Below, in pieces: positions 2,145 through 62,375 of a stretch of 64,000 nucleotides of DNA. The DNA is from Candidatus Bathyarchaeota archaeon (GTDB lineage: Archaea; Thermoproteota; Bathyarchaeia; TCS64). Position 1 is the stretch's first letter; each line of letters begins with the position of its first letter. The translations under genes and the position numbers were made by a program. The DNA lies in assembly GCA_963769425.1 (NCBI GenBank), contig CAVYLP010000001.1, positions 320,001 to 384,000 of the forward strand, in the 5' to 3' direction. The notes below the pieces were generated by a model. It worked only from the letters and a program-made list of their open reading frames with translations. It was not told the origin of the DNA and made no database searches.

Positions 2145-2444
2145 ATTTCTATTAAATATTTTTGTGCATACTTGTCGGGTCTTGTCTATACTTTAACTTG
2201 TGAGCATCTCGATATCATTATAGCACATATCGAAATTTTTCGATATCACTTTGAGGTACCGAACAATATCAAATTATTTGATTTAATTTATGACACACAA
2301 CCAGACCCGGCAAGCGCAGGAACTGACCCCTCGCGGCGGGACTGGAAAATTGAGATGTCAAGATATTCCAATCTCAAGACCACGCGCAAGTTAAAGAGAT
2401 GTATTTTGAAAAAATATTAATATTTATCTGAACTAAACGAGTGT

Positions 2445-3545
2445 ATGGGTGTTAAAAAGCCTGTCCCCGAAGGAATAAATGAATACATTTTTAATCAAAT
2501 TAAAACTCATCAAAATATACCTCAGTCTTTTCATACTGAAGATATTATTCGAGGTAATTTGTTATGTAAGTTTTTATCATGCACAAGCATCGAAGAGAGA
2601 TTCAATTTAAGTTTTAGAATATTTAAGAAAGTTCTATCAAGACACGCTAAAAATCAACCATTCTACGAAGTTTTAAAATATGCAGGTAAGATTGAAAGCG
2701 GAATACAGATATTCAATCCAACTCTCAGGGACCATCTAACCCACTCAGTTTATGTTTATCTTTTAGGTTTATCCGTGCTCCCGCCACAATTTCATAATCG
2801 TTTTGATCTTCAAGAAGAGAATATTGGATTTCAGTGGAAACTAGCCTCGCTATTGCATGACGTGGGAAGTCCCCCTTCGTTACTTTGTTACTCAATGAAG
2901 AGCTATTTGGATAGACTTCAAAAAGACTCAACCTTCGATTTTTTTTATCCGAAAATTTCAATTCAGAATCTAGAAACTCTACATAAAAGACCTAGAAGTC
3001 CAAATAATTCCTTCACTCTTATTGAACGCAAACTGACAGAATGGGATATTGATTTTGATATACGAGAAGAATTTAAAAAAGGCCTAAAAAAAGGCGATAT
3101 TGATCATGGTATTTTAGGCGCACTCCTAGTTTTAAAAATAATTGATGACAAATACTGTCAAAATAACCCCAATCATTATGTTCACGAAAATGAGTTCATT
3201 GAAAATGAAAGAGAGAAAGAGGCTTGGAGTAGACATTTTTTTGATGATGATGTTGTTGCTGCCGCAACAGCCATCTCAGTTCATAATATAATCGATAGAA
3301 CGGATTCAATAATCAAATTCGAAAAAACTCCCATATTATATTTATTAATTCTTGCTGATACATTGCAGGAATGGGACAGATATTCCCCAAAAGCTAGAAT
3401 GTCTGATCCCTATGCGTTATCTATTCAATTCGAAGGTGAACAACTAAATGCAGATTTACACTTGAGCAATCGGAAAAAACAATCAATACAAATGACCCTT
3501 AAAAAATTATTAATTAACGATGGACCTGAGATTGTTGTCCGATAG
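2445..3545 (+). CDS. HD-domain phosphohydrolase
   Basis: RDHLTHS, LLHDVG, DHG, VHN and ADTLQEWDR metal-binding motifs. Confidence 0.75.
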   Translation: MGVKKPVPEGINEYIFNQIKTHQNIPQSFHTEDIIRGNLLCKFLSCTSIEERFNLSFRIFKKVLSRHAKNQPFYEVLKYAGKIESGIQIFNPTLRDHLTHSVYVYLLGLSVLPPQFHNRFDLQEENIGFQWKLASLLHDVGSPPSLLCYSMKSYLDRLQKDSTFDFFYPKISIQNLETLHKRPRSPNNSFTLIERKLTEWDIDFDIREEFKKGLKKGDIDHGILGALLVLKIIDDKYCQNNPNHYVHENEFIENEREKEAWSRHFFDDDVVAAATAISVHNIIDRTDSIIKFEKTPILYLLILADTLQEWDRYSPKARMSDPYALSIQFEGEQLNADLHLSNRKKQSIQMTLKKLLINDGPEIVVR

Positions 3546-3553
3546 ATTCCTTT

Positions 3554-3574
3554 TATACGCGTATGCGCGCGCGC
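3554..3574. repeat. 21-bp perfect alternating purine-pyrimidine tract TATACGCGTATGCGCGCGCGC (Z-DNA prone)
   Basis: Read directly in the 37-bp gap between two convergent AT-rich genes. Confidence 0.85.
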
Positions 3575-3582
3575 TTTGATAA

Positions 3583-6411
3583 TTAAGGCATATTTGTCAC
3601 ATGAGAATAAATTAATGAATATAACTGTTCTAATTCTGACTTTGATACATTAAGTTGTAATATTGACGCCATAAATATATCTAACTCAATTCTACTTTTT
3701 TCACTACTCTTAAGTTGTTCTAAAATGCATTTATTATTACAACTTCGAATATTATTGAAATACTCTCCAATTAGTTTTTTTGATTCTTCTCCAATTTTAT
3801 CAAAATCAGGAATATACATATTTTTTAAATCTAATTGTTTTATTTCTAGGTATCCTCTTGTTGATTGTTTAGTAAACATTAGAAATTGTATCAAATAATA
3901 AATCGAATTAAAATATAATGTCAATGCTTTAGAAGAAAATTCATCTCCTTTGTAGAGCATTAAGAGATTTAATGGACAATATTTATCTTCGGTATATACA
4001 GCCATAGAAAATAAATTATTAGATTTTAACCATAGTCTATTTTGTATGAATAACTTACCTTTATCAGTTATATTCAATTTTTCTTTAAGAACATAATCGT
4101 GTTTTCCTGTAATATCATATACATTTATGCCGACTAGAGTTCTTAGAGTTTTTTCAACTTCCCTTTTTGATATTATTGATGTAGTAGCCGCCTTTTTATT
4201 GTAATAAGTAAGATTATCTTTAGTATCATCAGTAGGTTTAAACGTTAATAGAAACTTAACATCTTTATCAGATATTCTATCTCTAGTAAAAACAGATCTA
4301 TCGACAACACCTTTAGGTCTTAACTGATGACCATCTCTAATTAAACCACCATCCATTTTTATAGTAAAATTACTTTTCTCTAATATTTTATAAATTTTTT
4401 CTGATTGATTTTTAAAATCTATTTCATTTGTAAAAACGTACTTCATTAAATTATCTACATTGTCAAATAATTCTTTCTGTAATACTTCATAGTAGAGATA
4501 TTCTTTTTTATTATTTGATTCATTTAATTCGCTTTTAATATTTCGTACTAAATTATCAATTTCAGTACTACTCCATTCTGTTAAATCTTCTTTTAAACAT
4601 ATTATTTTTACTTTATGATCACTATCAGGAATACCTTTTTTAGCTATAAATATAATATCTGTAAATTCAGAATCTTCACTAAACGGTTTTCCCACTAAAG
4701 ATTTAATGATGTATTCAATTGAATAAGAAGTTAGGTAAAATTTTCTAAGTTTCAAGGTATCTTTTCCATGTAAAAGACTTATTGGTATTATTGCTCCTAT
4801 TTTACCTCCTACTTTTAAGACCTTATCCGTTAATACTAAAAAATGACCCCAAAGATTAATACGTCTTCCGCAAATATTGCTTGTAGACTTTTTTATAAAC
4901 TCATCTTTATACATAGGTGGAAGTTGTCTAATACTCGTAAATGGTGGATTGACAACTACACAGTTTACTTTATTTAGTAGAAATGTTTTAGGCTCTGAAA
5001 TAATTTCAACTTTATGTGGCACAAAATCATAAAGAGTTTTTGCCGATAATCTAAGTCGACGAATTTCGTCACTGATATCTCCATACGATTCTTTTATTGA
5101 TATTGGGCTTTCTAAAGATTCGATACTCAAAGAGTTCATAACTGCTATTCTAATAAAATTCGTCGGAGCACGTATATTTTTTGCAGAGAGATTTAAACCG
5201 GATAAATGGCAAGCGAACGGCATAATATCCGTTCCCGTCAAATCATTTTCAATAAATTTTTTATGTAAAATATCTTTTTGGGTTGGACTAATATCTTTAA
5301 TATTTTGATAAAGTCTTATTTTTCGTTCATAGCTTGAAACAAGAAGTGTTCCAGAGCCACACGCTAAATCCCATACCGTATCATCATATTTATCTATAGT
5401 TAAAGATGCTAAAAGGTCAGCCGAAGCGGTTTTGGTGTAATACGAGGCCAAAATCTCTCTTGTTTCTTTAGGGAGTGCATTCCCTATCAGTCTGCCATAT
5501 ACATCATGTTTCATCTCAGAAAGCTTTAATGGAATTAAACATTCAATTAGTTTATTTATTTCTTGAGTGATATCAGCATTAGAGGGGATTCTAGACACTA
5601 CTTCAATATCATAGATTGGGCGATAATCTATGGCTCTTATTCTATCAAAATAATTATTTAATTCTCCAAGATATTTTATTTTTTCTATTTCTGGTACTTT
5701 TTTTATGCCTTTTACTGAACCTGATTGTTTTGAATAAAAAAAATAAAATAGTATTTGGTTTGTGAGTATATATGCGAGTAAATCAATTGTTTGATTTCTA
5801 ATTTTTGATTTTCCTATTTTTGGGTTAGTAAGGGTAATGAATAGACCATAGTCTTTAGTTAGATGGTTTTTTATTTCATCAAGTGATTTTTCATTTTTAT
5901 AATGTTTATTCAATAACTTCGATAATGCTTTAACACTTTGTTGAATTATTGAAGATGCTGTTTCAACTCTCACAGTTGCAACTATTTGCTGATCTATTTT
6001 ATTTTTTAAAGTTGAAAATATTTCTTCTACATTCATTTTTGATTCATAACTATGCCAATTTTCAGTTAAGATTACAGATTCTACATGTATATTTAACGCT
6101 CTTTCTTTAACTTCTTGTAAAATATCAATCTTATTACTAGTAAACGAGGGATAAGAAATAACAATCATATTTGGAGTATTATACTGAATAGAATAATTAT
6201 AGACTTGAATAATTCCATCAATTAAGGTTTTAGAATCATCTTTATGATCAATTTTGACTTCCAAAATATAACTATTTTTCTCATATTTTATCAATAAATC
6301 ATAATAATTCTTCTCATTTTTTAATTCTTGTGCAACGATAAAATCCATATCTTCAAGTAATTGTAATATTGGTGCATACAGACTTCTTTCAACAGGATGT
6401 AGCGAATCCAT
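3583..6411 (-). CDS. Type IIG-like fused restriction endonuclease/N6-adenine methyltransferase
   Basis: N-terminal YDLLI...LEVK nuclease motif, motif I DLACGSG, motif IV NPPF, long C-terminal TRD-like region. 942 aa, very AT-rich. Confidence 0.85.
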   Translation of the reverse strand: MDSLHPVERSLYAPILQLLEDMDFIVAQELKNEKNYYDLLIKYEKNSYILEVKIDHKDDSKTLIDGIIQVYNYSIQYNTPNMIVISYPSFTSNKIDILQEVKERALNIHVESVILTENWHSYESKMNVEEIFSTLKNKIDQQIVATVRVETASSIIQQSVKALSKLLNKHYKNEKSLDEIKNHLTKDYGLFITLTNPKIGKSKIRNQTIDLLAYILTNQILFYFFYSKQSGSVKGIKKVPEIEKIKYLGELNNYFDRIRAIDYRPIYDIEVVSRIPSNADITQEINKLIECLIPLKLSEMKHDVYGRLIGNALPKETREILASYYTKTASADLLASLTIDKYDDTVWDLACGSGTLLVSSYERKIRLYQNIKDISPTQKDILHKKFIENDLTGTDIMPFACHLSGLNLSAKNIRAPTNFIRIAVMNSLSIESLESPISIKESYGDISDEIRRLRLSAKTLYDFVPHKVEIISEPKTFLLNKVNCVVVNPPFTSIRQLPPMYKDEFIKKSTSNICGRRINLWGHFLVLTDKVLKVGGKIGAIIPISLLHGKDTLKLRKFYLTSYSIEYIIKSLVGKPFSEDSEFTDIIFIAKKGIPDSDHKVKIICLKEDLTEWSSTEIDNLVRNIKSELNESNNKKEYLYYEVLQKELFDNVDNLMKYVFTNEIDFKNQSEKIYKILEKSNFTIKMDGGLIRDGHQLRPKGVVDRSVFTRDRISDKDVKFLLTFKPTDDTKDNLTYYNKKAATTSIISKREVEKTLRTLVGINVYDITGKHDYVLKEKLNITDKGKLFIQNRLWLKSNNLFSMAVYTEDKYCPLNLLMLYKGDEFSSKALTLYFNSIYYLIQFLMFTKQSTRGYLEIKQLDLKNMYIPDFDKIGEESKKLIGEYFNNIRSCNNKCILEQLKSSEKSRIELDIFMASILQLNVSKSELEQLYSLIYSHVTNMP

Positions 6412-6911
6412 TACTTAACTACCCTTTTTTTATCTAGATATTCCTTTAAAGATTCATTGTATATTTGAGTGTCCGATTTATCATTATCTAATCCATATTG
6501 TTTGATTCTTTTCAATAGTGATTTAGGTAACCTAAAGGTAGTTTTTACTAATTCTTCTTCGGGCAATATTTGACATATTATCATTTAAGTATTAAAAGTA
6601 TGCCGTAAATATGGCATGGACTAACAAAAGATGGTATATCAAATTAGGGTAAACTAGTTCCATTATTTTGAAAAGAAGTTGATTTTACATATTGCTCTCG
6701 TCAAATTTGTAAAACTTGTAAAACCGAATCAAACTGATTTTGGAATAGGAGATCCGTGTACAGCCTTGCCCCTAAAAAGGGAAATAACGCATATATTTAG
6801 TAGCGTCGAAGGCATTCGACCATATCTGGATCCAGTCTCAGGGCGTGCTAGCACGGTTTTTTGTGTGGAAAATATTTTCTAGTCGATGGGAGAATTGGAC
6901 GACGACACAAC

Positions 6912-7808: not shown

Positions 7809-8069
7809 GAACCGGGATTGTTTAAGATACTAAGTCTTTTTCGCCTTCACGGGAACGAATTAACTGAAATATGAAAAATTTGAATTTAATACATGGAAGT
7901 TATCACTTTGCGCTTCTACTAATTACTAATTATAATATTTTTAGGCGTATTTTTCAAAAAGAAACTTAAATATTAGACTTTATTAGCTGGAGTAAGAAAA
8001 TGTCAAAGAAATCTATAATACATCTCATTTAAAATACGCTCGCTAGGAATTATCCTAATTAGTTTGGGG

Positions 8070-9761: not shown

Positions 9762-9902
9762 AATTACTCTTCAGCTCATATGCTAAATAAGTGTAGTTAA
9801 GGAGAAGAAACATTCAGGAAGATAAAGTCGTTGTCTGGCGTGCGTATTAATTCGCTCATTAACGCCTCAAAAGAGATTGGCTCAATGAGCGGCGCTAAAT
9901 GG

Positions 9903-11630
9903 TTAACTGAGCATCTTAGGGGTCAAAATAAAGCACACCAACAGAAAAGCCACAGTTATTATTGTCCCGATCCATGAGAGTCTGATGGCTGTTTTCACCA
10001 TGGGGTTCGATCCCTCCTTCTTTTGAATATCTCGAGCGAGTAGCAGCGTGATGACCGTGAAGGGGAGGAAAATGACGCTGAAGAGCGAGATCTTGGATAG
10101 CTTAGCAATCAATCGCGAGTCCTTGAGCTGGGCATGGTATGTCGCATCAGGTGTTACCACGCTAACTGATTCAACGTTATAAAAGCCTCCCTGCACATCG
10201 AGTTGACCCTTCTGGTACCATTTGAGGCCTTGAAGGCTCTCCGGCTGCCACTTCGACGGGGTAATCGCCGCCCCTATAGTACCCATCAACCACTCAATCG
10301 AACCGATGAACTTGACCTTCTCCCAGCCCCTCATCACCAGATAGTAGGCGAAGTACGAGACCACAATCACGAGCAGCGTCCCATTCCAATCAAGCTTGAT
10401 ACGCCGCTGACCCGTGAGGAGAATCGACACGAGGATCCACCCCATGTAGTATAACCACTGGTTGTTATAGTTGGAGAACGCCGTGAAGCCGAAGCGCCGG
10501 ATAAACTGGACCGGCTTTGACTTGGAAAAGTCATGCCCATACCCCCGCCAATCGACTAAGTAAATGACTATCATCGCCAGCATGACCGCGAAGCCGTTGA
10601 GGGCCAGGAACTGCCAGAGCCACGATAATGGGGACATATACGCACCATACGCCCGCGATATGTCATCTGGGAACCAGTTGCGGAAATGCGAAAGGTCCTC
10701 CCACAGCTGCACAGTATTCATAAGACCTGCACCCTTGAACACATCGAACGCAGTGGCGACAACGCCTACCATTCCCACTAAGAAGGCGATGAGGCTGCCC
10801 ACAAGCACCTTTTTCACAAATTGTTTTGGGATTCGTTCAGGAGGTTGACACATCACGATCCCGATGATCGAGCCTATGCATGAAACCGCCAGAAAGGGAA
10901 AGACCGGCCCCATCGGCGCTGCTAGAGCCGCTAGGAAGGGGCTGACCAGTAAATAGCCGATCGAGTCCACCCCGATCTGGGGTAAATAGATTTCACCACC
11001 TCCCGTGGTGGTTGGCTGCCACGGATACCCGGGAACAAGTTGAGACACACCTACCCACACAGGGATCGTGAGTACAACCATCACCGCAGCGATGATAAGA
11101 TAGGTCCGGATCTGATGGGATACGTTTTTCCACTGCTCCTTCCGGCTTACGACGCCTTGAATAATGCCGTTGAGGATCACGCACCACCCAATAGTGTGGA
11201 TCATTTCAAACCAATTCCACCGCCAAAGGGCTGTCTGCAGATACAGTGACCATCGATAGGTTCCTCCTAAGTCCCTCACAAATAGACCAAACGATCCATT
11301 ATAACCAGTAACGGCCTCGGTGAGCATGCCGAAGAGAACAAGCAGTACGCCAGTTACCACTTGTTGCACGATCAGGGTGTTTGTCGGTTGTCCGTTTTCC
11401 AGACGCCGATACATTGAGACCATATTCGAGATAGCGCTGACGAGCAGGAAAAGGCCGGCTAAGCCACCTAGAAACGGAAGCACCACTAGGGATACCAAGT
11501 TAATCAGAGTGAGATTTGTCACATTGGCCAACAGAGCATCTGTGTTGAGAATCCCGTTGATTACGTGTAATCCGATCATCAAAAAAATGGATAATCCACG
11601 CAAAAAATCTAGACTTGCAAATCGTTTCAT
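9903..11630 (-). CDS. Polytopic membrane protein, HGSNAT/acyltransferase-3-like N-terminus
   Basis: RFASLDFLRGLSIFLMIGLH motif and more than 10 TM helices. Confidence 0.6.
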   Translation of the reverse strand: MKRFASLDFLRGLSIFLMIGLHVINGILNTDALLANVTNLTLINLVSLVVLPFLGGLAGLFLLVSAISNMVSMYRRLENGQPTNTLIVQQVVTGVLLVLFGMLTEAVTGYNGSFGLFVRDLGGTYRWSLYLQTALWRWNWFEMIHTIGWCVILNGIIQGVVSRKEQWKNVSHQIRTYLIIAAVMVVLTIPVWVGVSQLVPGYPWQPTTTGGGEIYLPQIGVDSIGYLLVSPFLAALAAPMGPVFPFLAVSCIGSIIGIVMCQPPERIPKQFVKKVLVGSLIAFLVGMVGVVATAFDVFKGAGLMNTVQLWEDLSHFRNWFPDDISRAYGAYMSPLSWLWQFLALNGFAVMLAMIVIYLVDWRGYGHDFSKSKPVQFIRRFGFTAFSNYNNQWLYYMGWILVSILLTGQRRIKLDWNGTLLVIVVSYFAYYLVMRGWEKVKFIGSIEWLMGTIGAAITPSKWQPESLQGLKWYQKGQLDVQGGFYNVESVSVVTPDATYHAQLKDSRLIAKLSKISLFSVIFLPFTVITLLLARDIQKKEGSNPMVKTAIRLSWIGTIITVAFLLVCFILTPKMLS

Positions 11631-11733
11631 AATGAAATCACAATCCGGTGAAGCATGGAACATTTATCTGTAGTTCAGTAAATAATATCTTTCCATCACC
11701 CGCGCGACAAGTAGAGGATAAAAGCTAATTTAG

Positions 11734-11771
11734 CAGTCTAAACCGTAGTGTGAAGCTATTCCTCTGCGCCA
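11734..11771. repeat. 38-bp dispersed repeat, copy 1
   Basis: CAGTCTAAACCGTAGTGTGAAGCTATTCCTCTGCGCCA, 32/38 identical to 19971-20008. Confidence 0.85.
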
Positions 11772-11938
11772 AGTCAAACCCAAAGTCATTATTTAGACGT
11801 AATTTCTAAAAAGAGTCGAAAATATTAGAATTTATCTTTTTCATTTAGAATGATTTACTTAAAACACTTTTTATTTAAGTTATTGGATAGTATTGCAAAA
11901 ACCGTCAGTTTTAGAATAATGAATATTATTTTTTTACT

Positions 11939-12289
11939 ATGAAGATCAAACTGACAAGCGTATTTGTAGACAACCAAGGCAAGGCTCTAAAGTTTTATAC
12001 CGAGGTTTTGGGCTTCGTTAAGAAATCGGATAACACCGCAGGGAAATTCAGATGGTTAACAGTTGTTTCGCCTGAAGATCAAGACGGTACCCAGTTACAA
12101 CTCGCTCTCAACGATAATCCCGCAGCAAAATCCTACCAGGAATCTATTTTCAAGCAAGGTGTTCCCGCAGCTATGTTCGACGTTGATGACATTCAGAAAG
12201 AGTATCAGAGACTGAAGAGATTGGGAGTGAAGTTCACCATGGAGCCGACGAAAACATTACTCGCGCGCAAGCTGAAAGTGAAAAATTGA
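11939..12289 (+). CDS. VOC/glyoxalase family protein, probably C-terminally truncated
   Basis: MKIKLTSVFVD..KALKFYTEVLGF. Lacks the usual final DxxGNxxxL strand; the frame runs into a CGCGCGC tract after MEPTKT. Confidence 0.8.
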   Translation: MKIKLTSVFVDNQGKALKFYTEVLGFVKKSDNTAGKFRWLTVVSPEDQDGTQLQLALNDNPAAKSYQESIFKQGVPAAMFDVDDIQKEYQRLKRLGVKFTMEPTKTLLARKLKVKN

Positions 12290-12375
12290 TTTAGGTCTGA
12301 ATCTTGCGATCTAAAGTTTTGAAAACCTTTGCCGAACTATATATAAAGAAGAAATTTTAATTTCAATTTGATAAT

Positions 12376-12789
12376 ATGAGCGCAAGAGAAGGGACTGAAT
12401 TAAAAGAACCTGCGTCTGAGTTGTTCCGCAAGAGAGTCAAGGAACTGGGCGATTGGCGTGGCGAGACGCTTGAAAGAGTGCGCAGGCTCATCAAGGAGGC
12501 GGACCCGGAGATAGTAGAAGAGTGGAAGTGGGTGAAACCTACGTCGCCTGGAACTCCAGTCTGGTCCCACAACGGCGGCATCTGCACCGGCGAGACCTAC
12601 AAGAGTGTAGTCAAGCTCACTTTCTTCAAGGGTGCTTCGCTGGAGGATCCCGCTCACCTGTTCAACCAGCCTGGGACCGTCAGGCGCGCTATCGACATCC
12701 ATGAAGGCGACAAGATCGATGAAGCTGCGTTTAAGAAACTCATTCGCGAAGCCGTAGCTTTGAACCTCAAGAGCAAAGGGAAACGGTAG
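12376..12789 (+). CDS. DUF1801 (YdhG-like) protein
   Basis: LIKEADPEIVEEWKW..PVWSHNG..VKLTFFKGASLEDP. Confidence 0.85.
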   Translation: MSAREGTELKEPASELFRKRVKELGDWRGETLERVRRLIKEADPEIVEEWKWVKPTSPGTPVWSHNGGICTGETYKSVVKLTFFKGASLEDPAHLFNQPGTVRRAIDIHEGDKIDEAAFKKLIREAVALNLKSKGKR

Positions 12790-12991
12790 ACTTGGACCAT
12801 GAGGACATCCTGTCGTTCTCAGAGCAGCAGATGGATCACCAAGAGCCTATCAAAAATCAAGCCAGCAGCTAGTTTTGGGCATAGAAAAGTACAGGTTGAA
12901 TGCTAAACATGTGCTTGACTCACTCAACCTAGACCAGAAAAACAAAGACCTAACTGACCACTACCACAGAGAAGGACCGTAAGAACAACAA

Positions 12992-13420
12992 TTGAACCAC
13001 TCTCAATGCTCAAAGCCCGCCGTCACCAGCACCCACGTGAAGGCCTACAGTAAAAGAGCCATGGACAACCGAACCGGGAAAAGCGACCCGGATGCGAGGG
13101 TGAGCGTAGAAGAGGAGGCTTCATCCTCGGCTACCGCGTCCACACGGCCCACTGCGCCGACTCCGAGCTGCCCTTGGCATTCACGGTGGCTCCATGCAAC
13201 GAGAACGACAAGGTCTACTTCGAACCGCTGTTAGAGCGGGTTCACCGCCTCGGAGTCAAGTTCAGATCCGTTCTGGCGGATGCGCAGTATAGATCGGTGG
13301 TACGTGACGCGGCTGAGTGGCTCGAGGCTGAGCCGATCATCCCGGCTAAGAGGGACTCCCGGGTTGATGCGGTACTGTGTGTTGGCCGGGACTTCGTTGC
13401 AAGAGGTGCTAAGCAGCCAG
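12992..13420 (+). mobile_element. IS5/IS4-like DDE transposase fragment (pseudogene)
   Basis: STHVKAYS..SDPDAR, GFILGYRVH, LAFTVAPCNEND and VLADAQY across frameshifts. Truncated at a CAGACAGACAAACGCGCGCG junction. Confidence 0.8.
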
Positions 13421-13528
13421 ACAGACAAACGCGCGCGTATAAATTATTAATTAAGGAATATTTTACATTATTTAATTCTATACGAGAAAGGTATAAATGC
13501 TCAATATAATACCGCAAATGAGTTCAGA

Positions 13529-14749
13529 TTGGCGCAGATAGTCACAGCGGCTCAGAGGCGGAACTATTACTTCATCATTGGCTTAGTTGTGATGATGCAG
13601 ATCACCTCGTCGACCATCTACATGGTTCTACCACTCTTCTATGCGAGCGTAGGAGTATCGGTGGCGGAGAATGGCGTCTTAATATCGATAAGCACCTTCA
13701 TGGGGATACTGAGCGGCCTAACCGCAGGGGTTCTATCTAATAGGTACGGGAGGAAGAAGATTCTCACACTGAGCGCCATAATATACTCGGTATCCTATCT
13801 AATGCTCGAGTACATGGGCACAGATTTTGGTAGCCTGGCGCTCTCGAGGATCGTCGCCGGAATAGGATTCTACATGATGCCGGTCATGGTGACCACCATG
13901 GCGGCGGACATATTTCCGATGGGGATCCGCGGGAGGGCCATGAGTCTCTATCAGGCAACGAGCGGGGTAGGCTCGTTGATTGGGCCGCTGATCGTTCCAC
14001 TGCTAATATTTGGAACCGATTTCAGCCATTATTTCCTGTTCTCAGCCATCTCGATCATGATAAGCGGCGTCTTTATGGCCTTCATCATCAAGGAGACGCT
14101 GCCCTCGGAGCTCAAGTCCAGTGTAAACGAGTCTATCCGCAAGAAGCTGAACGTTCGGGGATTCATCACCTCTCTTAGGGGCCTCGGCGTGGTCGTTGGG
14201 ATATTCCTCGGCGCAGTCATCTTCTATAGGACAGCGTACACGATGATCGATCCGTTCCTGAGCCTCTACCTGACAGAGGTGCTCAAACTTAACCTCGACT
14301 CAGTGAGCGCTATATACGCTTCCAGAGCTATATGCTACATCGCGTTCTCCTTCGTTGGTGGCTATCTCATCGATAGGTTCAGCAAGAAGACTGTGCTTCT
14401 GATGGGCCTCGCCATGACCACGATAACCGTCATTAGCTACCCCTTCACCCTGACGTTTCCGCTGATGTTGGTCTTGAGGGCGTGGGACGCCGCTTCTACC
14501 GCCATCTTGATCACGGGGATCTACACGTCGCTGGCCGATTTACTTACGGTGGAGAAACGTGGCCTGGGTATGGGGATCTACTCGGCGACGGCGCAACAGA
14601 GTTCGACTGTTGGCTCCATATTCAGCGGTTTCCTGATTGGGGTTTATGGATTCAACTTTGTTTTCGTAACGGCTGGCATAGCATGCGCCTTATCTTTCCT
14701 GATCTTCTGGAGGTTTGTGCCGGGGGGGAAGAAAGTGGATAAATCGTGA
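13529..14749 (+). CDS. MFS transporter
   Basis: About 12 TM helices; motif A variants GVLSNRYGRK and GYLIDRFSKK. Confidence 0.9.
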   Translation: MAQIVTAAQRRNYYFIIGLVVMMQITSSTIYMVLPLFYASVGVSVAENGVLISISTFMGILSGLTAGVLSNRYGRKKILTLSAIIYSVSYLMLEYMGTDFGSLALSRIVAGIGFYMMPVMVTTMAADIFPMGIRGRAMSLYQATSGVGSLIGPLIVPLLIFGTDFSHYFLFSAISIMISGVFMAFIIKETLPSELKSSVNESIRKKLNVRGFITSLRGLGVVVGIFLGAVIFYRTAYTMIDPFLSLYLTEVLKLNLDSVSAIYASRAICYIAFSFVGGYLIDRFSKKTVLLMGLAMTTITVISYPFTLTFPLMLVLRAWDAASTAILITGIYTSLADLLTVEKRGLGMGIYSATAQQSSTVGSIFSGFLIGVYGFNFVFVTAGIACALSFLIFWRFVPGGKKVDKS

Positions 14750-15154
14750 AAATAGGATGACTTCGTGCATATCTTCAATCATCCCATAACCGAGTCCCGA
14801 ACGGTGTGGCATCGTCTATGTTGCGCGTAAATCACGTGGTGGCAACATCTCAGACGAGGTCATTCATAAGTTGTTCTCCGCGCGTGCAATGAGTATTATA
14901 CAGTGGAAAATGCGCACGCAAGCATGAGAAATCTCGGCAGCGGAAAGCAATAATTACCAACATATATATTTCTTAATAAACCTCTGAAATGATGATTTTC
15001 ATGGCTCCAAACCTTAAGAATAAAATGTTCCTAGATGGCGAGTAGGTTGACTGATGAGGCGCGCGCGGGCCATAGCCTTATCCCCCCAAACCCAAACCCC
15101 TTTTTTTTTGTGTTTTTCTTAAACCAGCGATTAGTTGATTATCAGCATGTGCAC

Positions 15155-15174
15155 GGTGGAAGTGAGGATAAGAC
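15155..15174. repeat. 20-bp direct repeat GGTGGAAGTGAGGATAAGAC, copy 1
   Basis: Exact match to 15982-16001. Confidence 0.9.
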
Positions 15175-15254
15175 ATCCGCCAGACAAATACTTTTACATT
15201 AGATGAGGCTAATGCCAAAGAAGCTTTGGAATATATTTCGAGTATTTTATGCTA

Positions 15255-15923
15255 TTAGGCTAATCCAAGTACTCTCCCAGTTAGCTCAGTCCAGTCCTTA
15301 TCGACGGCCTCCCGAATGAGAGACTTAAGACCCGAAAATACCTGAGGAGGCATCAGATTCATCCATCCCTTAGTTAGGATAACTTGGTCATCCTGCTTCA
15401 GCAGAGGGAAAAGCCACCTCACCAAGAGGGGAGTCTTTTCCTGAGGCACACTCCTCGCCATGACCCCAACAATGGACACTTGTTCATCCAACCCCGTATT
15501 CTCTCGGAGAGTCGGGTACAGATAGGTGTCCTCCTTGTAGAGGTGAATCCTAAGATGTGACCTCAAGACAGCCGTCGCCCTGGCAACCACAAGGGGATCA
15601 GTTGCAGCACTCATCACACCTAGCCCAGCGACCATATCATCCAGTTCACGATGATCAGTGACATATGTCTTAGCTAGGAGCGGCGCCACCTTATCGACCG
15701 CCGGGAAGACTGCCTCCTCCTCACCCTTTGCATGGTAATTCAAAATCTCTCCAGTGACCTTCATTCGGTTAAGAATAGGAGTAAAATCTCCGCGGGTCCT
15801 TACCGTTTTTAAGGTATCCTCATCTATCTCCAGCAAGTCCCTGCGAAATGCGTTGTGAAAGCAGCGTACTACGTCAATTGGTCCGAAGTCCGTCCATTTG
15901 TTCACATCTGTGCCCATGTTCAT
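15255..15923 (-). CDS. Hemerythrin/HHE domain protein
   Basis: HNAFRRDL, HAKGEEE, DHRELD, HLYKED. Confidence 0.85.
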   Translation of the reverse strand: MNMGTDVNKWTDFGPIDVVRCFHNAFRRDLLEIDEDTLKTVRTRGDFTPILNRMKVTGEILNYHAKGEEEAVFPAVDKVAPLLAKTYVTDHRELDDMVAGLGVMSAATDPLVVARATAVLRSHLRIHLYKEDTYLYPTLRENTGLDEQVSIVGVMARSVPQEKTPLLVRWLFPLLKQDDQVILTKGWMNLMPPQVFSGLKSLIREAVDKDWTELTGRVLGLA

Positions 15924-15981
15924 GTCGATTATCTTCTCTTAATCCCTTAAATTAAATCTGTGTGAATTAAAACTAGCATCA

Positions 15982-16022
15982 GGTGGAAGTGAGGATAAGA
16001 CTATGGTTATCACCCAAACCCC
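15982..16022. repeat. Dyad site containing copy 2 of the 20-bp repeat (GGTGGAAGTGAGGATAAGACTATGGTTATCACCCAAACCCC)
   Basis: Exact 20-mer match to 15155-15174, GATAA/TTATC dyad, and 13/14 inverted match to 15070-15083. Confidence 0.8.
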
Positions 16023-16172
16023 AGTTTTCTATCCTTCATACCTGTCTAACAATCTCCCTTCTACTCTCACATACTCTTACTCTCTCTCTGGGTCAGACAG
16101 ACAAACAGACAGGGAAACGAACAGGCAAACAAATAAGAAGTATTAAAAGAGTTAAAAAAATATTTTATTTCG

Positions 16173-17033
16173 ATGTCTGAGATTAAAGTCAATTATATTC
16201 GTTTATCTTTGTTCAGAAATATCTCTTTATTAATCGTCCTATTTGGGTGGAGCATATATAATATAATGGGTGGAATCTTTAATTCAATTTATTTTTATCA
16301 ATATTTTACACAAGGTTTTTTATACTATGAACTATTAGAGAGCCTAATTTCCTCCTTTTCAGGAATACTATTATTATTCCTACTCATTGATATTTTACGT
16401 TCGAAAGAAATTACTCAACGAAATAGACTTGAGATAGTAAGCTTGTTTTTACTTCAGATAATATATCAAATAGCAAGACCCGTCTCTATGTTATACTTTA
16501 ATTTATCATCTATAAGTTTTCAACCACTTGACATTTCTAATTATACTCTATCTATATCTATAGCTATATTTAGTATTATTTTATATATTTATATAATCAG
16601 GAATATTTCCTATGGGTTAAATTTAATTAATGAAAATATACTCATATTAATTTTCTTTATATTTACAAGTTTTTCAATATATCAATTGTTGTATTATATT
16701 AATTATTTTGAGGGTCACTTATTCTATTTTTTCCAAATTAGTTCATTTGAATTAATATATTTGGTGGCTACATTTTTTTCCCTTAAGTTGTATCAAAAAT
16801 TTAGAAAAAATGATCTATCAGACCTTGTTATGCCTATCTATCTCAGAATCGCCCTTTTTGAGTTCGGATTTATGGGTCTTGCAAGTGTATACTTTTTACT
16901 CATTAGTAATGGTCGCATTTTGTTATATGGAGGGGTGTTAATTGGTGAGATGCCCAATATCTGGAGTTTTGTATATTACATTGGTTTTATGGCATTATCT
17001 TTCTTACCCCTAAAGATTATCTTCGATAAATAA
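16173..17033 (+). CDS. Hypothetical polytopic membrane protein, very AT-rich
   Basis: 286-aa ORF with about 8 hydrophobic segments, rich in I/L/F/Y. Confidence 0.6.
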   Translation: MSEIKVNYIRLSLFRNISLLIVLFGWSIYNIMGGIFNSIYFYQYFTQGFLYYELLESLISSFSGILLLFLLIDILRSKEITQRNRLEIVSLFLLQIIYQIARPVSMLYFNLSSISFQPLDISNYTLSISIAIFSIILYIYIIRNISYGLNLINENILILIFFIFTSFSIYQLLYYINYFEGHLFYFFQISSFELIYLVATFFSLKLYQKFRKNDLSDLVMPIYLRIALFEFGFMGLASVYFLLISNGRILLYGGVLIGEMPNIWSFVYYIGFMALSFLPLKIIFDK

Positions 17034-17109
17034 AACTCCAAAGAGTTAATCAATCAAACTGCGCAATGTCCGGGCTGGGTAGAACGGTATTATGCGTGCG
17101 CACATTATT

Positions 17110-17223
17110 GTTAAGATTAATGACTCTAGGATCCCAATTTTTAGTCTCACCCCTAAGATACTTAGCGAATAATAGAGACTCTTCATTTATCAGCGTCTCT
17201 TGGGTCTGGTGCTCCCCGTTCCT
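17110..17223 (-). pseudogene. cas1: Probable C-terminal fragment of an archaeal solo (non-CRISPR) Cas1
   Basis: RNGEHQTQETLINEESLLFAKYLRGETKNWDPRV resembles the recalled Bathyarchaeia-type Cas1 tail QT.ETLINEEALLLAKYLR.E...W.PR. Recognised from memory, not searched. Confidence 0.6.
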
Positions 17224-17325
17224 GTTATCTAGACAAAGCGCAGGAATGACGCAACAGGTTAACCAAAAATTAACGTCAGAGTGCTTAAATGAGGTTGGAA
17301 GTATTCGACGCGCACGCAAACGCAC

Positions 17326-17952: not shown

Positions 17953-18192
17953 CTAAGATGCCACCTTGCTATATTCATAAGATAATGTTTGTATTAAGTT
18001 GACGAAAACGGATCCTTTTTAGTTTTGAACCTGATTTGTGGATTTGGTGTTCAAAGTGTTCTTGATGAAGATGTGGGGTGAATGAGGCATCTAATAGGAT
18101 GATCTTCTAAACAACCAAGCTCGCGATTCAGCGGATCGAAATATAAGAATAGATTTAATTCATACCCATACAATGTATAACATAGGTCAAGT

Positions 18193-18435
18193 ATGACTGA
18201 GGTTCAGGTAACCAGCAAGGGGCAGATAACCATCCCCTCGGAACTCAGACGCAAATACAACATAGAGGAAGGCGGTAGGGTCCAAGTCGTCGAGGAAGAC
18301 GGGAAGATCGTAGTCAAAAAAGCGATCAGCTTCTACGACCTCGCCGGATCAGCTGTGGGAGAAGCCACAGTCGAGGAGCTAAAAGAGACGCTGGACGAGA
18401 TGAGAAAAGACGATGAAGAAAACCAGCGTCTATGA
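18193..18435 (+). CDS. vapB: AbrB/MazE-family antitoxin (VapB)
   Basis: VTSKGQITIPSELRRKYNIEEG; overlaps the PIN gene. Confidence 0.9.
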   Translation: MTEVQVTSKGQITIPSELRRKYNIEEGGRVQVVEEDGKIVVKKAISFYDLAGSAVGEATVEELKETLDEMRKDDEENQRL

Positions 18436-54226: not shown

Positions 54227-54324
54227 GATAATAAACCATCAAGAATTTTTACTTTAAGGGTAAAAAGCTATGCACGCACACCCATTGAAGAGTTCCCCTA
54301 TTGTAAGGACCGGTTGCCTTCCCT

Positions 54325-55182: not shown

Positions 55183-55442
55183 CTCATTTTAATCGATTAG
55201 AATGTAAATCTACCTAGTTCGACAATGTACGCGCGCCACGGTAAAATGCCTCAGTGAAAATGTAGTGTAATGATTTTCTTGAGTGCGGCCTGGGTCAATA
55301 TTTTAGAGGCATTAAGCGCGCTTTGAATAAGTTCCAGCCAGACAATAAGTATTAGGATGTGATAATGGCACAAGCCTAGAAAAAATCGGATACGCGCCAC
55401 CAAAAATTTAAACAACTTACTAATTTAATTTAATCGGTTATA

Positions 55443-55700
55443 ATGGGAGAAGAGAAAAAGAGGCCGAAGAAGGCACTCAACAAAGCGAAAGAGATACTGG
55501 ATAATAAGGTAAATAGAAAGAGAATCGATTTTTTAGTAACTTATGAAGTTGAGGGATCCAGATCCAAGAAACAGAAGGTACACGCCTATTCGAAAGAAGA
55601 GGCGGAGGAGATATTGACCACGAAGCTAGATTCACAAGTATCAGCTGGGGAGATCAACGGTTTTAAAATCATCTCAGTAGAAATTGAAAATACACCGTAA
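55443..55700 (+). CDS. Hypothetical small protein
   Basis: 85-aa ORF. Confidence 0.5.
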   Translation: MGEEKKRPKKALNKAKEILDNKVNRKRIDFLVTYEVEGSRSKKQKVHAYSKEEAEEILTTKLDSQVSAGEINGFKIISVEIENTP

Positions 55701-55808
55701 TAACGTATTCATAAATTTTAATCCAAGAGGTGCGTTGCTAAGTAAAAACAATATTTGAAGGATAAGATATTAAAAGAAAATAATTCCCAAACTGGGGGGT
55801 TATATTCT

Positions 55809-57185: not shown

Positions 57186-57293
57186 GACTTTTTTTCCGCA
57201 CGCGGATTGTGAATTTTATGGCATTCAATAACAATTACTCGATAATGACAATAATACACAATATATCCGGTAATCACTCGGGAGGATTTTAAG

Positions 57294-57686
57294 TTGTATC
57301 GGATGATTTCCCACTCCTGCATCAATCACATTATTGTTCCGATTTTTGATCGGCTAGGAAGTGAGGAAAATGTTGATTCCGAGCATGAAATTTGCTTAAT
57401 GATAAGACGCAATGAACATCTGAGAGACCATTTTAATGACCCTAGATTGAGAAAGAAGTTCGATGAGATACTTGATTATCGTGGGGTACGTTTTACCCTG
57501 TCAAAATTTGGATCTCGCCTCGAAATCTCAAATGAAAAGATAATGGATTCCGTTCCTTGGTGGATGGATCGGTTAAAGGAATCAAAGCCGAGTCTGTATA
57601 ATGCAATCGATCTCGAACCAGCTGGCAGAATCTGGTTTGGTGCTGTCTTAGTAGACATGGTTGCTCTGCTTCGTGAATATTTATGA
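57294..57686 (+). CDS. Hypothetical protein
   Basis: 130-aa ORF directly upstream of the UbiB gene. Start uncertain. Confidence 0.5.
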   Translation: MYRMISHSCINHIIVPIFDRLGSEENVDSEHEICLMIRRNEHLRDHFNDPRLRKKFDEILDYRGVRFTLSKFGSRLEISNEKIMDSVPWWMDRLKESKPSLYNAIDLEPAGRIWFGAVLVDMVALLREYL

Positions 57687-57696
57687 TGTGACTAGA

Positions 57697-59340
57697 ATGG
57701 TTAAAACGCATCTTTATAGTCGTCGTAGACGTGCTCAGGAAATCTCTGCTATACTAACGAAGTATGGTTTTGAGATAGTGTTATTAGACATTTTCCAGGG
57801 CAGAATAAAGGAAAGGTTTCATAGATACGATACCATCCCTGCACCGGAAATTATTCCTATAGTCATTCCAGACATTATTCCGAAACTGGTCCCGAAAGTC
57901 ATCAAGTCGAAGATTCTCAGACAGGATCCTAATCTTGCAAATCTCAACATCTATAGACGTTTCCGTCTAGCCATACAAGAGCTCGGTCCAGTATTCGTCA
58001 AATTTGGACAGATCATGAGCACCCGCCAGGAATCGTTGCCAGTCGAATTGATAAAAGAGTTGAAGATGCTTAATGATAAAGTAGAGCCGGTGCCATTTGA
58101 AGAGATTAAGGCAATAATTGAGGAGTATGCCCCAATCGAGAAGAGCTTTGCCTATTTGAATGAGATTCCCTTTGCGGCGGCGAGTCTCAGTCAAGAACAT
58201 GAAGCAAAATTGAAAGACGGCTCAGACGTCGTGCTAAAGGTACAACGTCCCGGAATACGAGAGAAAGTCGCTATAGATTTAAGCATACTCAAATTCATAG
58301 CCAAAAAGTTCGACTCATTATATGACTTAAATATCTACAATTTCCCCGGGATAGTTGAGGATTTTTCTAAACAGATTACCTCTGAACTCGACTTCACTAG
58401 AGACGGAAAAAATGCTGAACTTTTAGCAAAGAATATGGAGGGAATGAAGGGCATTCGAATTCCTAAAATCTATTGGGAGTTTTCCGGAAGTCGTCTACTA
58501 GTTATGGAGCACATGTATGGCGTTCGGATAGATGATGTTGTTGCCCTAAAAAGCATGGGGATTGATACTCGTGACGTCGCACGTAATGGTTTACACGCCT
58601 ATCTTAAGCAGATATTTCAGGACGGTTTCTTCCATGGGGACCCGCATCCGGGTAATCTTCTGGTTACCCAGAATGGTGATATTGTATTCCTAGATTTTGG
58701 TTTGATAGGGGTACTTCGCCCTGAGAAAAGGGATTTATTACTAAGAATGCTAACCGGGGTTCTCAATGCCGATGTTGACGAGTTAGTTCGTGTGTTTAAT
58801 GAATTGGGCATGAAGATTAATGACGCATTGGTCGAGTCTTTTAAGGATGAACTCTATGTTAATCTCCTTGAGGGTCAAAATGTCAAAATTATTGATCCTA
58901 AGAAACCAGATACTGAAGCCTTCTTAGCGATTACCAATACACTGCGAAAGTATCGTCTTCGAATTCCGATGGTCGCTATGCTGATGATTAAAGTAATTAT
59001 GATGGTCGGTGACTATAGTTTGGATATCTGGCCCGAGTTTAATTTCCTAGTTGAGGTTAGACCTTATTTAACGGAAATTGTAAAGGACAGGATTATTGGC
59101 CAAGTGGAAAAGACTGTTTATAATCTCCCCGACACAGCACAGGAAGTTGCTCAGATGCCACGTAGCGTTAACGAAGCAAGCAGGGTTCTAACAAACGGAA
59201 ATCTTATTGTTAGATTAACAGACGATGACGTTGATCGTCTTGGAGATCGTATTGGGACCGCTGTGAAGAGTGGAGCTAACAGGATTTTATTTGGTATCAT
59301 TATTCTCTCCGGTGTAATCTTGTATCTGTTCTTCAGGTAA
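57697..59340 (+). CDS. AarF/UbiB (ABC1) family kinase
   Basis: LGPVFVKFGQ, AAASLSQ, LKVQRP, ELDF, HGDPHPGN, DFG; C-terminal TM. Confidence 0.92.
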   Translation: MVKTHLYSRRRRAQEISAILTKYGFEIVLLDIFQGRIKERFHRYDTIPAPEIIPIVIPDIIPKLVPKVIKSKILRQDPNLANLNIYRRFRLAIQELGPVFVKFGQIMSTRQESLPVELIKELKMLNDKVEPVPFEEIKAIIEEYAPIEKSFAYLNEIPFAAASLSQEHEAKLKDGSDVVLKVQRPGIREKVAIDLSILKFIAKKFDSLYDLNIYNFPGIVEDFSKQITSELDFTRDGKNAELLAKNMEGMKGIRIPKIYWEFSGSRLLVMEHMYGVRIDDVVALKSMGIDTRDVARNGLHAYLKQIFQDGFFHGDPHPGNLLVTQNGDIVFLDFGLIGVLRPEKRDLLLRMLTGVLNADVDELVRVFNELGMKINDALVESFKDELYVNLLEGQNVKIIDPKKPDTEAFLAITNTLRKYRLRIPMVAMLMIKVIMMVGDYSLDIWPEFNFLVEVRPYLTEIVKDRIIGQVEKTVYNLPDTAQEVAQMPRSVNEASRVLTNGNLIVRLTDDDVDRLGDRIGTAVKSGANRILFGIIILSGVILYLFFR

Positions 59341-59527
59341 TTTTAATAGTTAAAAGGAAATTGAGCTATCTGAATGAGCGCCCTTTCGCGGCTGCCAGCC
59401 TCAGTTAGGCACGCTAAGCAAATCTGAAATATAGAAGATTCATCGTATTGAAGGTACAACGCCCGGGAATTTGGGAGTAAGCGCGCGCCATTTTTGGTTT
59501 ATTAACAGCGCCACTTATCTTACAATC

Positions 59528-60869: not shown

Positions 60870-61038
60870 GAGTTCTTACCTACTTGCGATTTGTCAGAGT
60901 TGAATCACCCTAGCCACTCGAATAAACAATTATTTGGAATGATTCAATGTATTATTTATGCATTTATTGATGAGCGTCTATCGGAAATGAAATAATAAAT
61001 ATCGTGCACGATAGTGTTTGAATCTAGGGTAAGTCGCG

Positions 61039-61551
61039 TTGGTTGATGAAATAAACACAACTTCCTTTGTAAGTGCAATAGATAATGAAGTGGATGAGAT
61101 ATCACAGAGGATTCTAGAAGAGCTTGAAAATGCAACGTCCACAGATTTATCCGACGCATCATATGCAAAGACGATATTACAGTTATCTGATATTAATTTC
61201 ACGAAACGAGTGCTTAAACAAGTTGAGAGCGTAGCATCTGAAGATAAAAATGAGGTCGGAAAAAGAGCAATAATCAAGGTACTATTGCTCTCTACATGGT
61301 TGCAGAGACTCTACTTTATCATAAGATCCTCGATAATGGGACTGATAAGTGGGATAGTCACCGCTCTCATAATCTTGTTTTTTGGTACGATAAATGTCGT
61401 TGGCGGAATATTCATCGGTATTTTTGTATTCGTGTTTTCCCTCGTCATTACAAGATTATTTGATGCACAACTCATTAAAGCCACGAAAAAGATTGTTGAA
61501 ACTATGACCAATCACAAAACTGTCCGCGATTTTATCATGAACCACTTCTAG
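61039..61551 (+). CDS. Hypothetical membrane protein
   Basis: Acidic N-terminal helices followed by two TM helices. Confidence 0.65.
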   Translation: MVDEINTTSFVSAIDNEVDEISQRILEELENATSTDLSDASYAKTILQLSDINFTKRVLKQVESVASEDKNEVGKRAIIKVLLLSTWLQRLYFIIRSSIMGLISGIVTALIILFFGTINVVGGIFIGIFVFVFSLVITRLFDAQLIKATKKIVETMTNHKTVRDFIMNHF

Positions 61552-61567
61552 GTAACGAATGTTTTAT

Positions 61568-62260
61568 CTAGTCATCCACTTCACGAGCATGTAGATTTCT
61601 AGAATTTTTCGTAAAAAGCCTCTGCCATATAGTAATTTTCTTGGAATGATAGTGAGTCTCGGTTCGATGTTTAATCACGTCCTCAAGAACCTGATAATCG
61701 TATGTGAGGTTAATTGTGGATGAGCCTGCACGAGTGCGCACACTGAACACCACGACTCTGTATGGTCCTGCTTCTAAATTCAGTGTCTTCGTATCCTTCG
61801 AGGAGTTTAGGGTGTAATAATCTACAGATCCCAAACTCTTCAATAGATCAGGTAGTCTTGGGACCAGCAGAGATGTGACAATCGGAATCGAAAGACCACT
61901 ACTTAAAAACGCGGTAGCGCCAGCCGCACCGAGTGTTAATACTATACTTTTATAGAAACTATCCCAGCTGGACTGTTTCATCACCGCTACTAACGAAACC
62001 TGCTTTGTGCTTGACCACTGAACCTTTACTGTCTGTCCTTGCGAGAGTGAAAAATCTATTTTCTTGAAGGTAACCGCGCCAAGAGGGACGTTCTCGGATA
62101 CTACTTTGTGAGTCTTAGTGACATACTCCTTTTCAGTATGTTGGACATCGATAATAATCGGATTAGAGTAATCTAATGAAGGTATAATTGGCAATGCAAA
62201 TAATCCAATTATCAATAGGACGCAAAAACCCACTACTAAATAAATTAAATAAATTTCCAC
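61568..62260 (-). CDS. Hypothetical membrane-anchored protein
   Basis: N-terminal TM; beta-rich domain with an internal hydrophobic insert. Confidence 0.6.
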   Translation of the reverse strand: MEIYLIYLVVGFCVLLIIGLFALPIIPSLDYSNPIIIDVQHTEKEYVTKTHKVVSENVPLGAVTFKKIDFSLSQGQTVKVQWSSTKQVSLVAVMKQSSWDSFYKSIVLTLGAAGATAFLSSGLSIPIVTSLLVPRLPDLLKSLGSVDYYTLNSSKDTKTLNLEAGPYRVVVFSVRTRAGSSTINLTYDYQVLEDVIKHRTETHYHSKKITIWQRLFTKNSRNLHAREVDD

Positions 62261-62375
62261 ACTAACTCACTTGACAAATATTATGATTATATAGTAAATA
62301 TATGAAACCTTTTCATCGTAAGATGCGCGAGTACATTGCCATGCTCATGTTTCAAGTGCCCTTTATATGGAGTAA

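Follow-up and report, generated by a model that had tools for sequence, protein, structure and literature searches.

The window examined here is a 64,000-nt stretch (G000:C1:320001-384000) of a 2.55-Mb, six-contig archaeal genome (G000), which carries an archaeal small-subunit (SSU) rRNA (1463 bits) and in which the closest named locus to one transposase belongs to a Candidatus Bathyarchaeota metagenome-assembled genome (MAG). Its G+C content is 46.7%, against 52–57% for the contigs, and it is flanked by two tRNA genes lying just outside it, tRNA-Ser(CGA) at C1:319694-319779, separated from the window start by 221 nt, and tRNA-Ile(GAT) at C1:384104-384181; no tRNA gene lies inside the window. 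The gene content is mainly accessory and metabolic and is spread over both strands: crude calls, made by greedily taking the longest open reading frames (ORFs) of at least 100 aa, give 54 ORFs, of which the plus strand carries 28 and the minus strand 26. Scattered among these genes are short, CG-rich, alternating purine-pyrimidine (RY) tracts, which an initial annotation took for the junctions of an undescribed, integron-like cassette recombination system and which are the subject of this analysis. The link of the tracts to mobile DNA is supported and the integron-like system is not; on our estimate there is about an even chance that the tracts are the signature of transposon tips, together with the remnants of such tips, in a low-GC variable island rich in mobile DNA.

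A CG-rich alternating RY run is present at each of the 24 positions at which one had been reported, the shortest being 6 nt (11701 and 55316) or 7 nt (55391 and 62323) long, and the run at 3554-3574 is indeed a perfect 21-nt alternation. The intergenic placement attributed to them holds for 21 of the 24, the remaining three (12262, 13429 and 39017) lying inside crude ORFs. The initial annotation had also proposed a count of such runs in intergenic and coding DNA against dinucleotide shuffles, and this count bears out the observation both in the window and genome-wide, with an excess in intergenic DNA and a depletion in coding DNA. The 14.7 kb of intergenic DNA in the window hold 25 RY runs of at least 7 nt with at least two CpG, against 10.0 ± 2.7 in 200 shuffles (maximum 18), while the 49.3 kb of coding DNA hold 32 against 56.0 ± 6.3 in 40 shuffles. 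Across the 450 kb of intergenic DNA in the genome, where alternating C/G runs were counted against 40 dinucleotide shuffles, there are 96 runs of at least 7 nt (35.9 ± 5.0 shuffled), 26 of exactly 8 nt (6.9 shuffled) and 19 of at least 9 nt (2.9 shuffled). Coding DNA shows 423, 106, 33 and 10 runs of 6, 7, 8 and 9 or more nt against 928, 277, 77 and 33 in shuffled sequence, a 2–3-fold genome-wide depletion that represents a separate avoidance.

Since this coding depletion inflates the intergenic-to-coding ratio, and the gene calls are crude, an explanation by composition has some footing, whether through CpG-rich patches or through a codon usage that merely depletes coding DNA. Such an artefact is nevertheless scarcely credible and has been ruled out: the intergenic excess survives dinucleotide shuffling piece by piece, the odds ratio rho(CG) is 1.01, the flanks of the tracts are of average composition, and alternation is over-represented among G/C-only runs of at least 8 nt, with a stretch of at least 7 alternating nt in 4 of about 16 such runs in non-coding DNA and about 1 in 75 in coding DNA (a hand count of 200 of 219 rows). 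Strong excess is moreover specific to (CG)n, the observed-to-expected ratios of the other dinucleotide repeats being 1.2–2.2 for TA, about 1.2 for CA/TG and 0.3–0.7 for GA/TC; with CG as the sole strongly enriched repeat, general microsatellite slippage is likewise ruled out.

The excess depends on genomic region. When intergenic DNA was binned by the G+C of the surrounding 20 kb (runs of at least 7 nt, 20 shuffles for each class), 45 runs were found against 3.6 expected (12-fold) where regional GC is below 0.50, 26 against 7.2 at 0.50–0.55, and 25 against 26.3 (1.0-fold) in the core intergenic DNA at 0.55 or above, so that the proposed association of the tracts with the flexible, mobile fraction of the genome stands and core intergenic DNA is at chance. 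Because the excess is limited to low-GC variable regions, the tracts are no terminator, promoter or chromatin signal of a general kind, and with no preference for any distance to gene starts or ends in the intergenic DNA of the genome, where they follow random expectation, a promoter or terminator role is ruled out. A more restricted idea is that the tracts are a cis-acting signal of foreign DNA, for example the binding site of an element-encoded protein or a supercoiling-sensitive RY box. The restriction of the excess to low-GC islands would suit this idea, as would the solo occurrence of most tracts with no common motif in their flanks, the retention of tract 19930 in two relatives, and the observation that tract-rich genomes outside the genus mostly do not have the transposase of the insertion sequence ISx described below; but the tracts keep no favoured distance from genes, their density is 0.32 per kb in convergent gaps against 0.19 in tandem and 0.18 in divergent ones, and they are enriched at repeat ends and truncation points, all of which makes a cis-acting signal unlikely. 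The 9-mer GCGCGCGCG, taken as a probe for the tracts in 71 genomes of the class, has a patchy distribution with GC content uncontrolled: most genomes have 0–4 matches, and it is abundant in G000, in the one congener drawn and in a few others.

What the tracts lead to is a pair of insertion sequences (IS). ISx, found via a motif in tract flanks, is about 1.26 kb long and encodes a 278-aa transposase with a DDE_Tnp_1 domain (62.8 bits, cut-off 23). This transposase is IS1182/IS5-like, yet it scores below every NCBIfam cut-off (72.8 against 270 for IS1182, 49.4 against 140 and 44.2 against 110 for IS5, and 24.3 against 115 for IS4), which places it in the superfamily and in none of its named families. 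In G000, ISx and its MITEs (miniature inverted-repeat transposable elements) have GCGCGC-TGCCTTGTCCCTAAAT at both ends, and the copy in the named Bathyarchaeota MAG has identical ends. ISy is about 1.2 kb long, has the ends GCGCGC-N5-TGTTTAGAAATTAAAT and bears a C/G run of 5–8 nt on both ends of three copies and on the one readable end of a fourth. Both encode an IS5/IS1182-like DDE_Tnp_1 transposase, and we regard them as related families because their inner repeats are alignable by eye. The genome holds six DDE_Tnp_1 matches, including one in the window (13111-13392), and about 15 MITE or IS copies; the non-autonomous MITE derivatives of the two elements measure about 130–600 bp, those with ISx ends in G000 about 500–600 bp. 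Across the genus, 18 distinct ISx ends could be collected from 10 of 18 genomes, and 12 of these abut an alternating C/G run of 5–10 nt while four abut a degenerate RY version (e.g., GCGCACACGT) resembling the weaker tracts of the initial annotation. The traceable tracts are the outermost 6–8 bases of the terminal inverted repeats of ISx or ISy, and an alternating GCGCGC tip is shared by two insertion-sequence families found in genomes of Bathyarchaeota type. A literature search for insertion sequences with GCGCGC-tipped terminal inverted repeats listed one paper, an unrelated one about silkworm MITEs.

Comparison with relatives bears on whether the tract belongs to the element or to the site. 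In the uninterrupted sequence of relatives there is no C/G run at the insertion point at any of five junctions, and therefore the tract comes with the element. Both ends of a MITE at C6:89.6 kb lie inside a gene that is intact, and has no tract, in G008; a MITE at C6:853.7 kb, located at a rearrangement point, has no corresponding tract in five relatives on one side and in four on the other; and for one ISy end of G008 it is the uninterrupted G000 that has no tract. The tract as an IS insertion target is disfavoured by the same five junctions. The broader version of that idea is that the tracts pre-exist as fragile or preferred sites, Z-DNA-prone (CG)n in AT-rich DNA, which are split or duplicated by varied inserts. 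It would explain why tracts occur on both sides of inserts, why the runs at IS ends differ in length (5 to 10 nt), why relatives have, just beyond their IS ends, short scraps with further tracts at their borders, and why a 455-bp window-specific insertion begins right after tract 57197, a tract also present in G002. Against the tractless uninterrupted sites and the core intergenic DNA without excess, though, a pre-existing target seems to us rather improbable.

If the tracts are transposon tips, the GCGCGC tip would travel with the IS or MITE and would presumably be where the transposase cuts, and an element landing in a gene or in another element would leave the interrupted sequence abutting the tract. 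Later truncation, nested insertion and deletion would then give rise to solo tips and to the clusters of tract, scrap and tract that may represent most tracts in the window. The mosaic of the window would have two ordinary causes, integration at tRNA-Ser(CGA) and insertion and deletion associated with IS and MITEs. Three cases within the window fit this course of events, namely tract 13429, which closes an ISy fragment, tract 15059, at which a genus-wide repeat starts, and a decayed ISx end at 6755-6778.

A broader line of evidence comes from the ends of repeats. Among 196 intergenic tracts of G000, 35 have a within-genome repeat ending within 8 nt; for matched controls, which are positions lying in those same intergenic pieces, the figure is 43 of 704 (odds ratio 3.3, P = 2e-6). 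A repeat spanning the site is rarer at tracts (12/196 against 92/704, P = 0.008). The tracts thus do lie at the ends of repeated or truncated segments at a higher rate than the controls. The 35 fall into two kinds: at 16, the partner copies bear the same C/G tip, and the remaining 19 are points at which a paralogous sequence breaks off, the full copy having no tract.

The second kind raises another possibility, that solo tracts are footprints or filler left by end-joining repair of breaks made by transposon excision or other illegitimate recombination. A complete bacterial-type end-joining cluster lies at G000:C6:594018-597486 (L072:2519-5986), in which a LigD primase-polymerase domain scores 220 bits and Ku 131 bits, and in which an ATP-dependent ligase carries a fused LigD 3′-phosphoesterase domain; in a search of 14 control genomes for Ku, Bacillus subtilis was the sole match. 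A literature search listed no paper treating non-homologous end joining, LigD and Bathyarchaeota jointly. The presence of this cluster speaks for repair footprints, as do the 19 tracts just described, which have a paralogue cut exactly there and no adjoining inverted repeat, and an extra 17-nt piece with ACGCACGCGCG that G002 carries in otherwise collinear DNA. However, a C/G run is involved in none of the six indels of at least 4 nt in the 16 blocks aligned between the window and G002, and among 19 element ends in relatives, eight of them with a match in G000, no case was found of an element in the relative and a solo tract at the same G000 site. We consider a footprint origin unlikely.

Returning to the tips and their remnants, it is important to stress that several observations weigh against this preferred explanation. 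The assignment is demonstrated for about 10–18% of the tracts, somewhere between a tenth and a fifth, and inferred for the rest. A mismatch scan of the G000 intergenic tracts recognised an ISx or ISy inverted repeat beside 18 of 196, nhmmer profiles built from the ends in relatives added no decayed ends to these (of 392 flanks, 10 and 4 reached at least 5 bits), and among 25 of 37 inverted-repeat pairs none was anchored on window tracts; with so few recognisable repeats and no anchored inverted pairs, the assignment is by inference alone for about 80% of the tracts. Outside the genus, one of five tract-rich and one of five tract-poor genomes had a homologue of the ISx transposase (one protein query, GC uncontrolled), so that the abundance of tracts does not follow that of the transposase there. 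At the ISx ends themselves, the variation of the C/G run from 5 to 10 nt exceeds what a fixed 6-nt tip with random neighbours would lead one to expect, and two of the 18 ends have no abutting run at all. No target-site duplication was seen at ISx or ISy, in that no direct repeat extends beyond the C/G tip, where a duplication of 2–4 nt in the palindromic tip would be invisible. Finally, the junctions at C6:89.6 kb involve a 383-bp replacement and at C6:853.7 kb the two sequences that flank the MITE lie apart in relatives, so these are not clean empty sites, and no clean pair of filled and empty sites was found among the relatives compared.

The cassette proposal, in which the tracts would be core or scar sequences acted on by a tyrosine integrase or a solo Cas1, leads to the expectation that breakpoints of gene presence and absence fall on the tracts. 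Contig C33 of the related genome G002 is collinear with window 6718-62319 over 16 blocks of 78–95% identity, with 32 block ends and many window-specific segments between the blocks, and no alternating C/G run of at least 6 nt comes within 35 nt of any of the 32 ends (null 1.6). When the originally listed tracts are used, four of the 32 ends fall within 5 nt (null 0.95, P = 0.016) and the same number within 35 nt (null 3.3, P = 0.43). The closer of these two coincidences is in favour of the proposal, as are the listed tracts found in unaligned DNA or at the boundary of a block, 18 of 21 where 67% is expected (P = 0.053), and the recurrence of single window genes in other contexts in relatives. 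Metagenome data were available as contigs only, from four runs and for window 11000-20500; their depth and gaps carry no information, and the runs cover a small share of the stretch (0.05–0.10 of words). The breaks listed for them include five joints (10 sides) and 18 loose-end rows, and just one of these 28 positions, 15083, is within 20 nt of a tract; the contigs read through tract 19930 and lose likeness at 11734, 11769 and 20008, which are edges of tRNA-like repeats. The enzymes and the layout fail the proposal as well. The putative tyrosine integrase at 1-678 (+) consists of broken reading frames directly after tRNA-Ser(CGA), whose fragments 1-153 and 493-675 match no integrase family (E ≤ 1), and the sole PF00589 match in the whole genome is at C4:282254-282769; a motif in these frames may be integrase-like, which no family match confirms. 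Cas1 matches only at C4:211375-212170 and C6:728135-728584, outside the window; at one of these loci the match is spread over two adjacent frames, and at the other a TGA interrupts it. An Rfam search of the window gave no match, and attC is not known to be an Rfam family. The layout of the ORFs, on both strands, is unlike that of a cassette array, and those tracts that can be traced are tips of inverted repeats of DDE-transposase insertion sequences. Because the breakpoints do not coincide with the tracts, the proposal is largely refuted by the criterion on which it was to be judged, and we consider a cassette system very improbable.

The tRNA-Ser gene provides a more ordinary source of mosaicism. 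Copies of the 3′ end of tRNA-Ser that resemble att sites occur at 11734-11771 and 19971-20008, sharing the core TTCCTCTGCGCCA with 13 identical and about 20 similar nt, and the sequence after this core is the one that follows the intact tRNA-Ser in G009. The first belongs to a longer att-like repeat at 11734-11862 (+), in which a degenerate tRNA-Ser 3′ part ending in TTCCTCTGCGCCA (11759-11771) is joined to this G009 sequence; the second, a pseudo-tRNA repeat, extends over 19971-20049 (+), and the resemblance of contigs from two runs is lost just past 20008. A partial copy of the sequence found 3′ of tRNA-Ser in relatives lies at 7940-7983 (+). An intact tRNA thus stands at one border and 3′-end repeats at the other, as in tRNA-targeted elements. 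The att-like copies, the nearby tRNA-Ser and the broken frames behind it together suggest that integration at the tRNA-Ser(CGA) gene produced the mosaic of the window's first 20 kb, which would account for that mosaic and not for the tracts themselves.

The individual tracts take a variety of forms. The first, CACGCGCA at 2381-2388, is solo and outside the region comparable with G002, and the 21-nt tract at 3554-3574, which ends in (GC)5, lies between the convergent ORFs 2445-3545(+) and 3583-6411(-). The product of the latter is 942 aa long and includes an N6-adenine DNA methylase domain; encoded in the low-GC segment adjoining tRNA-Ser, it may belong to an integrated element as a fused restriction-modification enzyme. 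The decayed solo ISx end at 6755-6778 (+) reads CGTGTACA-GCCTTGCCCCTAAAAA, where the orthologous site in G002 has CGCGCGC-TGCCTTGTCCCTAAAT. Further on, GCGTGCGTAT (9838-9847) is solo in window-specific DNA, CGCGCG at 11701-11706 lies 28 nt upstream of the first pseudo-tRNA repeat, and CGCGCGCA (12262-12269) falls in the 3′ end of a glyoxalase-family ORF (11939-12289), with a block end 55 nt away. The ISy fragment at 12888-13440 (+) is composed of a piece of the left end (12888-13018) followed by a DDE_Tnp_1 fragment (13018-13414) and is closed by ACGCGCGCGTATA (13429-13441), which lies within an ORF that is itself a transposase pseudogene fragment.

A cluster begins with TGCGCGTA (14822-14829) in non-coding scrap DNA, to which CGCGCGTGCA (14879-14888) also belongs, and is followed by ATGCGCACGCA (14910-14920), 9 nt before a gene fragment at 14929-15052 (+). 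This fragment, a promoter with its first codons, duplicates C4:139500-139622 at 89% identity and ends 7 nt before GCGCGCGCG (15059-15067), and the full copy on C4 has no tract where the fragment is cut off. On its other side, GCGCGCGCG is followed directly by the genus-repeated element at 15068-15233, matches to which begin at 15067/15068. The hemerythrin-domain gene at 15255-15923 is skipped in contigs of three metagenome runs, in which about 15181-15233 is joined to about 15978-15982, and from these joints it follows that the two short genus-wide repeats flanking the gene are neighbours elsewhere. The tract TATGCGTGCGCACAT (17091-17105) lies 5–20 nt before a repeat at 17110-17224, and ACGCGCACGCA (17308-17318) is 2 nt from a block end at 17320 that coincides with a nitroreductase stop codon. 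A PIN-domain (vapC-like) gene pair at 18012-18885 is absent from G002:C33, and one metagenome contig joins 18012 to 18885; GCGCGCGCGT + GCGTATACGTA (18830-18853) lies 32 nt before the block end at 18885. The tract at 19930-19938, CACGCGCGC, is conserved in G002 and G009 within an aligned block.

In the remainder of the window, GTACGCACG (23742-23750) is solo in window-specific DNA, ATATACACGCATGC...CACGCGCC (37111-37135) lies within an aligned block in which its CGCGC corresponds to CTTGC in G002, and ACGCACGCGCA (39017-39027) occupies the 3′ end of a flavodoxin-like ORF (38439-39032) in window-specific DNA. The tract TATGCACGCACAC (54269-54281) stands at a block end common to G002, G007, G009 and G011, and ATGTACGCGCGC (55225-55236) belongs to a tract cluster in window-specific DNA. 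GCGCGC at 55316-55321 precedes by 41 nt a repeat at 55362-55730, inside which lies ATACGCGC (55390-55397); this segment, about 360 nt long and containing an ORF of 85 aa, is found in 11 of 17 other genomes of the genus that were searched and again in G000 at C4:385757-386120, and the copy in G006 is 30 nt from an ISx end. The tract CGCACGCG (57197-57204), directly after which the 455-bp insertion starts, reads CGCGCG in G002, GCGCGCGC (59481-59488) marks the cut-off point of a 116-nt diverged copy of part of the gene at 57661-59340, and ATGCGCG at 62323-62329 lies 4 nt past the last block end. Beyond it, an ABC1 kinase-like gene at 62376-63993 is divided into two overlapping ORFs (62376-62837 and 62800-63993) that match consecutive parts of the profile, probably through a frameshift. 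Two inverted arms of 63 nt (27672-27734 and 28965-29027, 73% complementary, spaced 1230 nt apart) enclose small ORFs, and the unit may be another insertion sequence; no C/G tract is listed at its tips.

Overall, a candidate for a new mechanism of gene capture is removed, and DDE transposons and tRNA-gene integration, both ordinary mechanisms, take its place. The GCGCGC tip shared by the two elements could serve as a simple marker of mobile DNA or variable islands in archaea that are mostly uncultured. A large share of the island tracts is without a traceable element, in a genome with a complete Ku/LigD cluster, and this solo majority merits a look at the level of the pangenome. We give a small but real chance to the idea that the solo tracts are a written record of archaeal Ku/LigD end joining at GCGCGC-tipped transposons or Z-DNA-prone sites. 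Were they such repair footprints, they would offer a rare sequence-level view of archaeal end joining and would show where in the flexible genome excisions and illegitimate joins took place in the past.

Set beside known systems, the window resembles integrons in that single genes recur in varied neighbourhoods of related genomes. In archaeal integrons, as described by Ghaly et al. 2022 (PMC9668308), short ORFs stand in tandem, most of them pointing the same way, with attC sites that fold as single strands placed among them, and the recombinases are tyrosine recombinases of the IntI type. Compared on these features, the window differs in its nearly even split of ORFs between strands, in yielding no detectable integrase, and in its breakpoints lying off the tracts. 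Integrative elements also insert at archaeal tRNA genes, for example in Sulfolobus chromosomes, and the window shares with these a nearby tRNA-Ser(CGA), copies of its 3′ end (TTCCTCTGCGCCA) and contig breaks at the edges of those copies, whereas no intact integrase was found and the shared core is short. RY boxes and other Z-DNA-prone alternating tracts are known from promoters, such as that of the Halobacterium bop gene; these too are short alternating runs in non-coding archaeal DNA, but the tracts described here have no fixed position relative to gene starts, are densest between convergent genes, are in excess only in variable islands and are enriched at repeat ends. ISx and ISy themselves resemble insertion sequences of the IS4/IS5/IS1182 type and their MITEs in having one DDE_Tnp_1 transposase gene, terminal inverted repeats, many copies, short non-autonomous derivatives, a location at rearrangement points, and insertion polymorphism, relatives being without the insertion at five junctions. 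They depart from that type in the subthreshold scores of the ISx transposase against every named family in showing no visible target-site duplication, and in an alternating GCGCGC(GC) outer tip that is common to two families whose inner repeats differ.

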